Counted from the first letter of the stretch, positions 41,924 to 58,730 are shown. The stretch is DNA of 64,000 bases from Alphaproteobacteria bacterium (GCA_016124645.1 WGNE01000017.1:9431-73430); one strand, 5' to 3'. The notes: generated from the sequence alone by a model not told the origin. Numbers and translations are program-made.

Positions 41924-43300
41924 TTGGCAAGCGAAGCCGCAAGCATTGGCAGTATCGTCGAGGTGCACGGGCCGGTCGTGGTCGTGGCCTGCGACGCCTT
42001 GCCGCCGCTGCGCCGCGCGCTGACCGCGACGGTGGAGGGGGATACCTGCGTTTTCGAGGTCCACCAGCATCTTGACGAAACCCATGTGCGCGCCATCGCG
42101 CTGCACCGCACCTCCGGCCTGCGGCGGGGCATGCCGGTCTTTGATACCGGCGCGCCGCTGCACGTGCCGGTTTCGCCCGCCTGCCTCGGCCGGCTGGTGA
42201 ATATCTTCGGCGAGCCGCTGGACGGCAAGGACGCGCTGCCCGCGGGCGAGTTCCGCAACGTCCACGGCACGCCCGTCGCGCTGTCGGACACCGTGGGGCT
42301 GACGGGGATACTGGAAACCGGCATCAAGGTCATCGACCTTCTGTGTCCCTTCGTGCGCGGCGGCAAGACCGGGCTGTTCGGCGGCGCGGGCGTGGGCAAG
42401 ACGGTGCTGGTCATGGAATTCATGCACGCCGTCGTGGCGCTGCACAAGGGCGTTTCCGTCTTCGCGGGCGTGGGCGAGAGGATTCGCGAGGGCCATGAGC
42501 TCTGGCACGATCTGCAGGCCGCGGGCGTGATGGACAAGGCGCTGCTCGTCTTCGGCGAGATGGACGAGTCGCCCGGCGTGCGTTTCCGCGTCGGCATGAC
42601 CGCGCTCAGCTACGCCGAATACCTGCGCGACACGCTGCACAGCGAGGTCCTGTTCCTCATGGACAACGTCTTCCGCTTCGTGCAGGCGGGCAGCGAAATC
42701 TCCAGCCTTCTGGGCCGGATGCCCGCCACCGTCGGCTACCAGCCCACGCTGGGCACGGAGGTGGCGGAGATGGAAGAGCGCATCACCTCCACCCGCGCGG
42801 GCGCGGTGACCTCCGTGCAGGCCGTCTATGTGCCGGCGGACGACATGACCGACCCCGCCGTCACCGCGATTTTCAGCCACCTCGACACCACCGTCACCCT
42901 TTCGCGCGGGCAGGCGGCCAAGGGGTTTTACCCGGCGGTCGATCCGTTGCGCTCGGGCAGCAAGCTGATGGACAGGCATTTTCTGGGCGACCGTCACTAC
43001 GACATCGCAGAGGGCGTGCGCGAACACCTCGCGCGCTATCACGAGCTCGAAGACATCATCACCATGCTGGGCGTCGAAGAACTTTCGCAGGCCGACCGCC
43101 GCACGGTGATGCGCGCGCGCAAGCTGCAGCGATACCTGACCCAGCCTTTCTATTCCACCGCCCAGCATACGGGCATGGAGGGCGTGACCGTGCCGCTCTC
43201 GCGCACCCTGTCCGATTGCGACGACTTCCTGACGGGCAAGCACGACGATACCGAGGAAAGCGCCTGCTACATGCGCGGTACGATGGAGGGCGCGGCATGA
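41924..43300 (+). CDS. atpD: F-type (N-ATPase-like) ATPase beta subunit
   Basis: [38 protein letters not shown] (DELSEED variant); TTG start. Confidence 0.95.
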
Positions 43301-43710
43301 GAAGCTTCACCCTCATCCTGCAGGATGCGACACGCACGGAGCGCATCGAGGACGTGACCTCCTTCGTGGGCGAGGACAAGTCCGGCGCCTTCAGCCTCTG
43401 GGCCGGGCACGAGCGCATGATGACCTCGCTGCTTTTCAGCCTCGCGCGCTACCGCGCGGCGGAGGATACGCCGTGGCAGTACCTCGCCGTGCCGGGCGCG
43501 CTGGTCTATTTCAACGACAACACGCTGACCGTCAGCACGCGCAGGTATTTGCGCGACGCGGATTACGAGCGCATCACCCGGCTTTTGAACGCCCAGCTTT
43601 TGAAGGAGGAAGACGATCTGCGCGGCATGAAGACCAGCCTGCAGCGCATGGAAGACGAAATGATGAAACGCCTATGGCAGATGGGCCGCGGCAACCGGGG
43701 GGCGCTCTGA
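43297..43710 (+). CDS. atpC: ATPase epsilon subunit
   Basis: ATGA overlap with atpD; SFVGED.SG.F..W.GH; position in the atpDCQBEFAG order. Confidence 0.85.
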
Positions 43711-43711
43711 C

Positions 43712-43993
43712 ATGTCCGAGCAGGAAGAGCTGGAAAAACAGGTCGCGCGCCAGGCCGGGCGCATGAAGCAGGCGGAAAAAGACCGCCCGACGCTGCTGGC
43801 GCAGACCTCCTATATCGGCACGCTGGGCCTCGTCTTCGTGCTGCCGGTCATCGCCGGCGCCTATTTCGGCAACTGGCTGGATGAAAAATTCTCCGGCTAT
43901 TCGGTGCGCTGGACGCTGGGGTTTTTGCTGCTGGGCGCCATCTGCGGCGGGTTCAACGTCTATTTCCTGATCGGCAAGGGGGATAAATCATGA
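43712..43993 (+). CDS. atpQ: AtpQ/AtpZ-like 2-TM protein
   Basis: GTLGL.FVLP..GAYFG.WLD, two TM helices; position after atpC. Confidence 0.8.
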   Translation: MSEQEELEKQVARQAGRMKQAEKDRPTLLAQTSYIGTLGLVFVLPVIAGAYFGNWLDEKFSGYSVRWTLGFLLLGAICGGFNVYFLIGKGDKS

Positions 43994-44682
43994 CGGGTCA
44001 GGATACGGGCATTTCCGCGCATCTCGTCTGGCAGCTGGGGCCGGTGCATATCACCGATACGGTGGTGACGACATGGGGCATCATGCTTTTCATGCTCGTC
44101 GCGGGCCTGCTGCTCACCCGCAACCTCAAAGAGGAGCCGGGGCCGGTGCAGACCGCGATGGAAGGCGTCGTCACCGCGATCGAGAACGCGATCAAGGCCG
44201 TGATGCCCGAAGGTTCGCGCGCGATTCTGCCCTTTATTCTTTCGCTCTGGATATTCCTCGTCGTCGCCAACCTCGTGGGCGTCATTCCGGGGCTGCATTC
44301 GCCCACGCGCGATTTGTCCTGCACCACGGCGCTGGCCATACTCGTCTTTCTCTCCACGCATTGGTACGGCATCCGCATCGCGGGGCTGAAGAATTACCTG
44401 CATCATTACCTCACCCCCAGCCCCATCATGCTGCCCTTCGAGATCATCAGCGAAATCTCCCGCACCGTCGCGCTCGCCGTGCGCCTGTTCGGCAACATCA
44501 TGAGCATGGAGATGATCGCGCTTTTGCTGCTGATGATCGCGGGCTTTCTGGTGCCGGTGCCGATTTTGATGCTGCACATCGTCGAGGCGCTGTTGCAGGC
44601 CTATATCTTCGGCATGCTGGCGCTTATATATATTACCGGCGGCATACAGTCGCAGCAACTCAGTCAACAAAAAGAGGAGTAG
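43990..44682 (+). CDS. atpB: Fo subunit a
   Basis: SPTRDL, PFEIISEISRTVALAVRLFGNIM, LQAYIF. Confidence 0.93.
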   Translation: MTGQDTGISAHLVWQLGPVHITDTVVTTWGIMLFMLVAGLLLTRNLKEEPGPVQTAMEGVVTAIENAIKAVMPEGSRAILPFILSLWIFLVVANLVGVIPGLHSPTRDLSCTTALAILVFLSTHWYGIRIAGLKNYLHHYLTPSPIMLPFEIISEISRTVALAVRLFGNIMSMEMIALLLLMIAGFLVPVPILMLHIVEALLQAYIFGMLALIYITGGIQSQQLSQQKEE

Positions 44683-56942: not shown

Positions 56943-56964
56943 ATTTATGATTTACTTACTTGTT

Positions 56965-56978
56965 TTGATTAATATCAA
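56965..56978. promoter_or_regulatory. Consensus FNR box upstream of phaC
   Basis: TTGATTAATATCAA, a perfect TTGAT-N4-ATCAA. Confidence 0.85.
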
Positions 56979-57032
56979 AGGGCGGTCCGGCCCCCTGTGG
57001 TCAACTGGAACAGGATAAACAGGAGAATGACG

Positions 57033-58730
57033 ATGAAAGACGACAGTTTCGCGCCCTATTTCCGCTACATGGATACGCTGTGGCAGGCGGGTCTTTCGCA
57101 CTTTACCTTCGGCATCAGCCCCGCCGGGGCGAGCGACTCTTTCTCCGCATGGGGCCGCCACCTCGCGCAGGCGCCCGGCAAGGCGGCGGAAATCGGGCTC
57201 TACCCGCTTTTGCACGCGCAGGCCTTCGCCCAGCGCATGGCCTGCGTTCGCGACGAGGAATGCAAGAAGGACCCGCGCTTCAAGTCCGACAACTGGGATT
57301 TCTGGCCTTGGCGCTTTTACGCCGAAAGCTTCCTGTTCATGGAGGAATGGTTCAACCAGGCGACGACCGACGTGCCGGGGCTGGACGAGCAGAACGAGCG
57401 CGCCGTCTCCTTCGCCGCGCGCCAGTTCCTCGACGCCTTCTGCCCGGCCAACTTCCCCGTCACCAACCCGGACCTCGCCTATGAAACCTTCAGCACCGGC
57501 GGGCAGAACCTCGTCAACGGGGCGAAGAACGCGTGGCAGGACTTCAACGACCTGCTGACCGGCAAGGAGCCGGAGGGCAGCAAGAAATTCAAGGTCGGCG
57601 AAACCCTCGGCGTGACCGAGGGCGAGGTCGTCTTCCGCAACGACCTCATCGAGCTCATCCGCTACACGCCGAAGACGAAAAAGGTCTTCAAGGAGCCCGT
57701 GCTCATCGTGCCCGCGTGGATCATGAAGTATTACATCCTCGACCTCTCGCCCCACAACTCGCTGGTGCGCTGGATGGTGGAACAGGGGCACACGGTCTAT
57801 ATGATCTCGTGGAAAAACCCCACGGCGGAAGACCGAAACAAGGGCATGGACGATTACTACCGCCTCGGCCCTATGACCGCGCTGGACGTCATCGGCCGCG
57901 ACTTCCCGGACGCCAAGGTGCATCTCACCGGCTATTGCCTCGGCGGCACGCTGGCCCTGCTGACGGCCGCCGCCATGGCGCGCAACAAGGACGAGCGGCT
58001 GAAGAGCCTGACGCTTTTCGCCGCGCAGGGCGATTTCACGGAGGCGGGCGAGCTCTCGCTCTTCGTCACGCCCAGCGAGGTCGCCTTCCTGAAGAACCTC
58101 ATGGAGGTGCAGGGCTATCTCGACACCAAGCAGATGGCGGGCGCCTTCCAGATGCTGCGCTCCTACGACCTCATCTGGTCCAAGGTCATCCACGACTACC
58201 TCGAAGGCAAGCGGCACGACACCTTCGACCTCACCGCGTGGAACGCGGACGCGACGCGCATGCCCAGCCGCATGCACGGCGAATACCTCGAAAAGCTGTT
58301 CCTGAAGAACGATTTCGCGGAAGGCCGCTTCAGGGTCGAGGGCAAGATGGTCGCGGCGGAAAACATCCGCATTCCCGTCTTCGCCGTCGGCACCGAAAAG
58401 GACCACGTGGCGCCCTGGCGCTCGGTCTATAAGGTGCATTTGATGGCGGGGGGCGACGTGACCTTCGTGCTGACCACCGGCGGGCACAACGCCGGCATCG
58501 TCAGCGAGCCGGGGCACAAGGGCCGGTCGTACCGCATGCACGAAAAGAAACGCGCGCAAAGCTATATCGACCCCGATACGTGGCAGGACCACGCCACGCG
58601 CTTCGACGGCTCGTGGTGGGAAGCCTGGCACGGCTGGCTGCAAAAGAATTCCTCGAAGGAAAAGATCGCGCCGCCGCCGATGCGCAAGGGGCTCGCCCCC
58701 GCGCCCGGCGCCTATGTGCTCGAAAAATAG
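57033..58730 (+). CDS. phaC: Polyhydroxyalkanoate synthase
   Basis: DPRF, PANF..TNP, IMKYYILDL, GYCLGG lipase box, DHVAPW, GHNAG, GSWW, APGAYV; AGGAG RBS. Confidence 0.93.
   Translation: MKDDSFAPYFRYMDTLWQAGLSHFTFGISPAGASDSFSAWGRHLAQAPGKAAEIGLYPLLHAQAFAQRMACVRDEECKKDPRFKSDNWDFWPWRFYAESFLFMEEWFNQATTDVPGLDEQNERAVSFAARQFLDAFCPANFPVTNPDLAYETFSTGGQNLVNGAKNAWQDFNDLLTGKEPEGSKKFKVGETLGVTEGEVVFRNDLIELIRYTPKTKKVFKEPVLIVPAWIMKYYILDLSPHNSLVRWMVEQGHTVYMISWKNPTAEDRNKGMDDYYRLGPMTALDVIGRDFPDAKVHLTGYCLGGTLALLTAAAMARNKDERLKSLTLFAAQGDFTEAGELSLFVTPSEVAFLKNLMEVQGYLDTKQMAGAFQMLRSYDLIWSKVIHDYLEGKRHDTFDLTAWNADATRMPSRMHGEYLEKLFLKNDFAEGRFRVEGKMVAAENIRIPVFAVGTEKDHVAPWRSVYKVHLMAGGDVTFVLTTGGHNAGIVSEPGHKGRSYRMHEKKRAQSYIDPDTWQDHATRFDGSWWEAWHGWLQKNSSKEKIAPPPMRKGLAPAPGAYVLEK

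Follow-up and report, generated by a model that had tools for sequence, protein, structure and literature searches.

A box-marked genomic island in which a spare atpR-less rotary ATPase operon adjoins phosphotransacylase and kinase genes

Organization of the island

The 64-kb window analysed here (G000:C38:9431-73430, the whole stretch of DNA under study) belongs to an alphaproteobacterial assembly of 2.85 Mb in 71 contigs, which is 91% complete; the public sequencing run that best matches the window is labelled as hot springs metagenome. Genes were called by Pfam and NCBIfam profile scans together with open reading frame (ORF) listings. On the plus strand these placed a spare rotary ATPase operon, atpD-C-Q-B-E-F-A-G (41924..48071), followed by a fusion gene for a MaoC/PhaJ-type (R)-hydratase and a Ptb-type phosphotransacylase (48092..49498; NF006045) and by a gene for an acetate/propionate-family kinase of 368 aa (49495..50601; TIGR00016, PF00871). 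An earlier note, made from the sequence, had described an ATPase operon that continues after 20 nt into such a fusion and then into an acetate-family kinase, and the profile and ORF calls bear out this layout.

The ATPase genes start with the beta subunit: atpD (41924-43300) is followed by atpC (ending at 43710), atpQ (43712-43993; PF09527), atpB (43990-44682), atpE (44690-44953), atpF (44962-45726; an ATP-synt_B domain plus an OSCP-like end), atpA (45727-47226) and atpG (ending at 48071), and there is neither an atpR nor a delta gene. The gap between atpG and the fusion gene is 20 nt long and holds a purine-rich AGGGGGA 6 nt 5′ of the fusion ATG, while the fusion and kinase genes overlap by 4 nt. 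A scan found no promoter- or terminator-like site within this gap, to which its use was confined (terminator-like sites numbered 24 against 19.6 in shuffled sequence, which is no excess, and promoter-like sites 7 against a shuffle mean of 3.2, with a standard deviation of 1.6). The ATPase-Ptb-kinase string looks like one operon, and its genes would be co-transcribed. A second assembly of the probable source run, which is not independent of that source, contains one 9781-base contig across 42382-52162; since it spans the atpG/ptb junction, the junction is not a binning artefact. Contigs of another run of the same study (X2) covered the region in fragments, none of which bridged the junction.

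The palindrome TTGA-N6-TCAA, an FNR-type box, occurs six times in the window, always between 41805 and 59046, against an expected 0.54, and none of 100 shuffles gave six. All six boxes lie 5′ of genes. One (TTGACCTTCATCAA, 41805..41818) is in the 171-nt spacer 5′ of atpD, with a -10-like TATATT (41845-41850) between it and the gene. Another (51437..51450) precedes a gene for a Crp/Fnr-family regulator (51599..52387, plus strand), and two (52883-52896 and 52928-52941) separate fabI (52978..53772, plus strand; subfamily NF005717) from a divergent gene for a baeRF family 12/Host_attach protein (52388..52825, minus strand). The fifth, a perfect palindrome (TTGATTAATATCAA, 56965..56978), stands 5′ of phaC, which encodes a class I-like polyhydroxyalkanoate (PHA) synthase (56997..58730, plus strand; TIGR01838), and the sixth (59033-59046) lies 5′ of a gene for a CecR-type regulator. 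The 2.85-Mb genome carries 40 such boxes, so that the island, about 17 kb long, holds 6 of the 40.

It had been claimed that fabI and phaC lie in the box-marked island and that further fab genes as well as phaA, phaB and phasin genes are missing from their surroundings, and both points were confirmed by the positions of the six boxes and by the gene scans. The further idea that phaC and fabI belong to a system linked to the ATPase stood in part. They share its boxed regulon, but they have boxed promoters of their own and lie outside the ATPase operon, 2.4 kb (fabI) and 6.4 kb (phaC) downstream.

Elsewhere in the genome the same box is found 5′ of ompW, of hemN (TIGR00538, 398 bits) and of a paralogue of the window's regulator with 58% identity, which fits an oxygen-responsive regulon. 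Together with the excess of boxes in the window, the boxed ompW and hemN support the view that the island forms one FNR-type regulon. The recognition helix of the window's regulator contains E-x2-SR, and both this protein and the paralogue (G000:C12:362-1153, minus strand) end in a C-terminal C-x2-C-x6-C cluster. The N-terminal Cys cluster of Escherichia coli FNR is missing from both Crp/Fnr regulators of the genome, and we take their C-terminal cluster to resemble the C-terminal Fe-S ligands of Bacillus subtilis Fnr. The pattern of boxes and regulators suggests that the island is under FNR-type low-oxygen control.

Two side observations concern the same boxes. A phasin gene (PF09361) lies about 290 nt 3′ of the boxed hemN (G000:C56:27761-29759), which may place a granule protein under the same low-oxygen control. 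The baeRF12/Host_attach gene has a box of its own (52883-52896), and a low-oxygen role for it is puzzling.

The atpR-less ATPase and its relatives

A canonical F-ATPase is encoded on contig C16 (51% identity in beta, 44% in alpha), so the ATPase of the window is a second copy. Its gene order, with atpD-atpC in front, atpQ present, no atpH and a long atpF whose b subunit matches OSCP at residues 173-241, recalls the N-ATPases, which likewise have beta and epsilon genes first, an atpQ and no delta gene (PMC2881411; PMC5376962), as well as a long b subunit with a delta-like end, and which are always second copies (PMC2881411). They also carry atpR, called their tell-tale sign (Dibrova, Galperin and Mulkidjanian 2010, PMC2881411). 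This hallmark is absent here: a profile search with PF12966 gave 0 matches in the genome, while the control, Methanosarcina acetivorans, was matched. There is no room for the gene either, as atpQ overlaps atpB by 4 nt. The atpQ-atpB gap was at most 64 nt in 25 of 26 scorable related loci, versus 316-385 nt in 6 atpR-bearing ones. The label of a classical N-ATPase in the strict sense is ruled out by the missing atpR and the lack of space for it.

The c subunit differs as well. N-ATPases have two Glu residues in c or the Na+ motif ESTxxY (PMC2881411), whereas in the subunit of the window helix 1 is free of Glu and helix 2 carries ESLAIY. This single Glu suggests H+ rather than Na+ as the transported ion.

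The same gene order without atpR, D-C-Q-B-(E)-F-A-G, was also observed in related loci from metagenomes, of which 47 were fetched, as well as in two family relatives and one genome of the class sample. In a quick beta-subunit tree, the window and 19 similar loci formed one clade (support 100). Neither the two atpR-bearing clades (support 99 each) nor the two F-type rows included fell within it, and the tree does not fix the order in which these groups branch. Members of the atpR-less clade (the window, L078-L123, L127, L128 and L187) are beta-first, atpQ-bearing and delta-less, with a single-Glu c subunit. No description of this clade was found in the parts of the N-ATPase papers that were available. 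The ATPase of the window is a little-known atpR-less relative of the N-ATPases. Its type is rare: among 40 relatives the gamma subunit had matches in 2, and in a class-wide sample of 400 other genomes it had a match in 1.

Neighbours of classical N-ATPases were studied in 15 loci, fetched from the 15 of 401 genomes of a phylum sample in which atpR scored over the cut-off. At one (L172 521-6455, genome G384), genes for a PhaB-like short-chain dehydrogenase/reductase, a PhaC with 51% identity to that of the window, and AckA converge on atpG. At another (L175 6651-9229, genome G172), an FNR-type box and a carbamate kinase gene (NF009008, 422 bits) lie directly 5′ of atpD in the same direction, with AckA divergent. 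As in the window, a source of substrate-level ATP adjoins a spare ATPase, sometimes behind an FNR-type box; the chemistry differs, since the window has Ptb-AckA with PhaJ. In a full-text literature search, N-ATPase and acetate kinase occurred together in 4 papers, none of which had both terms in the title or abstract, and in the one consulted the terms were unconnected; no paper linking the two came to light.

Enzymes of the proposed route and the cassette they belong to

The fusion protein combines PF01575 (residues 18-113) with PF01515 (residues 237-455) and scores 730 bits against NF006045 (cut-off 282). Its family, named in the sources 'bifunctional enoyl-CoA hydratase/phosphate acetyltransferase', counts more than 8000 sequence clusters, the best 120 of which are all fused. 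The hydratase motif GD-x-NP-x-H, GDVNPAH in the window, is intact in every one of these 120 sequences, and 13 of 15 fused loci have it. The closest solved relatives of the PhaJ half are (R)-specific enoyl-CoA hydratases (5cpg, 1iq6). One locus of a betaproteobacterial metagenome-assembled genome (L010 10001-11317) has lost the motif from the hydratase half and kept the Ptb half and the adjacent AckA; in another fusion (L060), the His of the motif is replaced by Tyr. An ATPase located 4.4 kb from the cassette in L010 was read as a coincidence, its beta subunit grouping with the F-type.

The transferase half scored 202 bits against a solved phosphate butyryltransferase (7vg9) and at most 63 bits against any Pta. 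Against family models it reached 296 bits with TIGR02706 (P_butyryltrans; cut-off 410.5) and 464 bits with a 'phosphate acetyltransferase' subfamily model (cut-off 413).

The kinase gene directly 3′ of the fusion (PF00871, 328 bits) encodes an enzyme whose best models are acetate/propionate kinases (TIGR00016, 321 bits, cut-off 293), versus 55 bits with the Buk model TIGR02707 (cut-off 289). Its motif HRIVHGG has Val in place of the Ala of HRIAHGG in wild-type propionate kinase, and at the corresponding motif positions Leu (PLAPLH), Phe (GFHG) and Pro (GLPMGTR) are retained as well. It lacks the insertion of about 25 residues of AckA and TdcD, which is reported as present in acetate and propionate kinases and absent from butyrate kinases (PMC3475010). 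According to the same source, Salmonella AckA does not use butyrate, with which its Val93 clashes.

FabI of the island has the Tyr-x6-Lys signature and scored 423 bits with NF005717 (cut-off 337). It is the third copy in the genome; the other two fit other models best (NF006019 over its cut-off, NF005078 just under). PhaC has a GYCLGG lipase box and scored 492 bits with TIGR01838, below the cut-off of 623; its true start is probably Met 11 or 13 (57027 or 57033). A kit for polyhydroxybutyrate (PHB) is found elsewhere in the genome: a class III PhaC (535 bits) with PhaE, two acetoacetyl-CoA reductases and PhaR, and further two phasins, two tandem PhaZ depolymerases and three thiolases. By contrast, the Ptb and AckA of the window are the only copies found in the genome with the queries used.

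The earlier note had arranged these enzymes into a route from PHA to butyrate, and this proposal fared unevenly. The conserved hydratase motif, the FabI signature, the Ptb-like transferase and the PHB kit agree with it; the acetate-type kinase does not, and PhaC thiolysis as the necessary entry from PHA was not borne out, because with two PhaZ depolymerases it is not required. The step in which the kinase makes butyrate was weakened by its AckA-type, not Buk-type, score and by the Val of HRIVHGG. With such a pocket, butyrate formation would be the weakest step and acetate formation the safest inference. As a whole, the PHA-to-butyrate route is a plausible proposal.

The set PhaC-(PhaJ::)Ptb-AckA-FabI itself is not new and occurs in several phyla; its chemistry is predicted from sequence. 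In the window the dedicated FabI and PhaC are in the same cluster, non-contiguously (from 52978 and 56997). Loci titled Rhodospirillales (fusion, AckA, FabI), Legionella (PhaC, fusion, AckA), Granulicella (fusion, FabI) and Undibacterium (PhaC, HlyD/ABC, FabI, fusion, AckA) hold different selections of it. Order-level relatives have PhaC-fusion-AckA-FabI (G036) or Ptb-AckA-FabI (G010). Of 18 proteobacterial-type loci, 11 have AckA as a neighbour, as do 13 of 16 loci of relatives; for FabI the counts are 4/18 and 4/16, and for PhaC 4/18 and 1/16.

Published relatives of the cassette are known. In Burkholderia sensu lato, the 'group D1' context phaC/phaJ-pta/ackA(/fabI) was linked to an ORF-pta-ack-fabI operon of Sinorhizobium meliloti (PMC8231600; the operon after Summers et al. 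1999, as cited there). These share with the window the fused hydratase-transacylase, an AckA-type kinase next to it, a dedicated FabI and a PhaC-like gene nearby. In the window, however, the cassette is split: Ptb-AckA ends the ATPase operon, and FabI and PhaC are boxed separately. The S. meliloti operon is reported to be controlled by PhoB and not by oxygen, unlike the window with its FNR-type boxes.

Closer in regulation is the lxa locus of Burkholderia cenocepacia J2315, an obligate aerobe, in which a role in anoxic survival was proven (Sass et al. 2013, PMC3721108). The set is in print for this locus too. What lxa shares with the island is a TGA-N6-TCA motif, genes for PhaC, acetate kinase, a phosphate acetyl/butyryl transferase and ABC transporters, and an Fnr-like regulator encoded within the locus. 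There is no rotary ATPase among the lxa genes listed in the available part of the source, which do include many universal stress proteins, an acetoacetyl-CoA reductase and a class II ribonucleotide reductase, none of which was seen in the island. Additionally, phaC2 of Bradyrhizobium diazoefficiens is a FixK2 target dispensable for polymerisation (PMC10888616), and the Rhodobacter sphaeroides 'PHA synthase' operon RSP_1257-4 is a chromatin immunoprecipitation target of MppG, a factor of the CRP/FNR family (PMC4263372).

The remaining genes of the island are of other kinds. Between the kinase and the regulator there is an AT-rich insert of about 1 kb (50600-51600; GC content of 35-46% against about 63% around it) that looks like foreign DNA. 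It carries an orphan ORF of 220 aa (50604..51266, minus strand), which had no match in Pfam or PADLOC and is probably outside the system. Between fabI and phaC, on the plus strand, are genes for a beta-CASP metallo-hydrolase (53864-55228), an AAA_28 P-loop protein (55266-55925) and a LysM-YkuD L,D-transpeptidase (55998-56942); the beta-CASP, AAA_28 and baeRF12 proteins had no meaningful PADLOC match. Homologues of the beta-CASP protein adjoin PhaC in a Legionella norrlandica locus (59% identity; L004 5699-7051) and follow directly after atpG of an atpR-less ATPase on a metagenome contig (39%; L098 8327-9688). Downstream, the island is adjoined by genes for the CecR/TetR regulator, HlyD, an ABC ATPase and an ABC-2 permease (58958..62958, plus strand). 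Two Undibacterium loci (L005, L006) likewise have HlyD, ABC and ABC-2 genes beside the cassette, and the relative G036 has HlyD and ABC-2 genes there (loci compared: L005, L006 and L058).

A proposed pump fed by substrate-level ATP, and competing explanations

The island brings together two modules that are separate in most genomes: a spare beta-first, delta-less ATPase and the known PhaC-(PhaJ::)Ptb-AckA-FabI set. What is new is the arrangement of this known cassette with an atpR-less ATPase under FNR-type control.

The explanation we favour, to which we assign an even chance, is that the pump of this low-oxygen island would be driven by substrate-level ATP, made mostly from acetyl-CoA, with PHB-derived C4-CoA as both fuel and NADH sink. 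On loss of oxygen, the Cys-tailed Crp/Fnr regulator would turn on all units. Ptb and the kinase would convert acetyl-CoA, and perhaps C3-C4 acyl-CoA, via the acyl-phosphate into the acid and ATP. Since their genes sit in the ATPase operon, this ATP would be made in step with the pump that hydrolyses it to hold an ion gradient, presumably of H+ given the single-Glu c subunit. PHB, mobilised by PhaZ or PhaC, would yield 3-hydroxybutyryl-CoA. One part of it would be oxidised via PhaB and thiolase to acetyl-CoA; the PhaJ domain would dehydrate the other, and FabI would then reduce the product at the expense of NADH. Redox balance would need both branches, with a presumed stoichiometry of one 3-hydroxybutyryl-CoA going to two acetyl-CoA and one being reduced via crotonyl-CoA. 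Whether the resulting butyryl-CoA would end as butyrate or otherwise is the least certain step. A proposal made for the N-ATPase of Burkholderia pseudomallei (c17 ring), that it works as an ATP-driven H+ pump (PMC5376962), speaks for this explanation. So do the placement of all six boxes of the window in the island, the same box 5′ of ompW, hemN and the regulator paralogue, the tight operon junctions, the ptb gene that follows atpG in the closest relative of the ATPase (L077, below), the canonical F-ATPase elsewhere in the genome, the lack of further Ptb and AckA matches, the recurrence of the cassette, the PHB kit, and the kinase genes beside 2 of 15 classical N-ATPase operons.

Several points weigh against it. 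The kinase pocket looks acetate-type, and FabI, for which crotonyl-CoA is a putative substrate, may instead be specific for the acyl carrier protein. Induction of PhaC in anoxia would fit PHB synthesis as well as breakdown. N-ATPases have also been read as stand-by synthases, and an ATPase with a large ring could just as well synthesise ATP when the membrane potential is low (preprint 10.64898/2026.10.01.756066).

The join itself is rare. In a census of 47 metagenome loci, two relatives and one class-sample genome, 41 ATPase loci were informative (at least 150 nt after atpG), and a ptb followed atpG in 1 of the 41. This locus (L077, a metagenome contig) has the closest relative of the ATPase (84% identity in alpha, 75% in gamma); here an unfused ptb begins 14 nt downstream of atpG, and its first 59 residues align to residues 152-211 of the window's fusion. 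In the family relatives G020 and G017, the ATPase (beta 81-82% identical) and an unfused ptb-ackA are on different contigs, although G020 has two FNR-type boxes directly 5′ of its atpD. With the join limited, beyond the window, to L077 and the modules apart in these two relatives, it is recent and lineage-specific. As to the co-occurrence of the components across genomes, Ptb-AckA with FabI and/or PhaC indeed recurs, but the link to the ATPase is not general. Finally, the genomes of L172 and L175 come from one taxonomic family, so the two cases may not be independent.

We think it rather unlikely that the route of the earlier note carries the main flux, that is, PHA broken down by PhaC thiolysis to 3-hydroxybutyryl-CoA and taken through crotonyl-CoA, butyryl-CoA (by FabI) and butyryl-phosphate to butyrate and ATP. 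All five enzyme types are present and boxed, the transferase resembles Ptb more than Pta (202 versus at most 63 bits), the hydratase motif is conserved, FabI accompanies Ptb-AckA in unrelated taxa, and the kinase lacks the insertion in the manner of butyrate kinases (PMC3475010). Nevertheless, the kinase belongs to the AckA family (55 bits with Buk, far from 289) and has Val, Leu, Phe and Pro at motif positions of the acetate pocket, and Salmonella AckA, with the same Val, rejects butyrate (PMC3475010). The transferase, too, stays under the P_butyryltrans cut-off (296 against 410.5) and passes that of the 'phosphate acetyltransferase' subfamily (464 against 413). PhaJ and Ptb are fused although their steps are not consecutive, PhaZ makes PhaC thiolysis unneeded, and the route alone consumes NADH, so that a parallel oxidative branch would be needed.

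The island might also run in the opposite, assimilatory direction: AckA and Ptb would activate external acetate or short acids to acyl-CoA, PhaC would store PHA as an electron sink, and the large-ring ATPase, as a stand-by synthase at low potential, would pay for the activation. Published accounts interpret the Burkholderia cassette and lxa in this way (PMC8231600, PMC3721108), the stand-by role proposed for N-ATPases (10.64898/2026.10.01.756066) agrees with it, and the Cys box of PhaC, a synthase, is intact. We regard it as quite improbable: FabI works in the reducing direction, away from PHA monomers, uptake that consumes ATP is costly for an energy-starved cell, and it has been argued that N-ATPases do not make ATP (PMC2881411). 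Equally improbable, in our judgement, is the absence of any common pathway, with independent low-oxygen or stress genes (an ion or pH pump, acetate overflow, a lipid FabI isozyme, a spare PHB synthase) sharing a regulator and juxtaposed by rearrangement. The 1/41 count, the foreign-looking AT-rich insert, the separate promoters of FabI and PhaC and the unrelated beta-CASP, AAA_28 and L,D-transpeptidase genes between them would fit such a history. Against it, the combination of Ptb-AckA with FabI and/or PhaC turns up in several phyla, the junction is tight and has a counterpart in L077, and ATP-yielding kinases adjoin 2 of 15 classical N-ATPase operons.

If the favoured reading, a pump supplied with substrate-level ATP, is extended to other genomes, spare ATPases of both the N-type and the atpR-less kind would be fermentation-powered ion pumps which recruited ATP-making modules repeatedly (Ptb-AckA in the window and L077, PhaC-AckA in L172, carbamate kinase with AckA in L175), PHB being split here into acetate for ATP and a FabI-reduced C4 product as NADH sink. 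Taken jointly, this claim is tentative and seems to us possible but doubtful.

What N-type and related spare ATPases do has been debated since 2010, with Na+ export, acid defence and stand-by ATP synthesis all proposed. An ATPase operon hard-wired to acyl-phosphate enzymes behind a putative low-oxygen promoter offers a testable answer, namely a pump fed by substrate-level ATP when respiration stops. It also provides a biochemical hypothesis for a very widespread uncharacterised fusion enzyme and for the 'extra' PhaC and FabI copies of many aerobes, some of them clinically relevant. Internal fermentation of PHB to acetate and a reduced C4 product, if it takes place, would explain how strict aerobes survive anoxia on a storage polymer.

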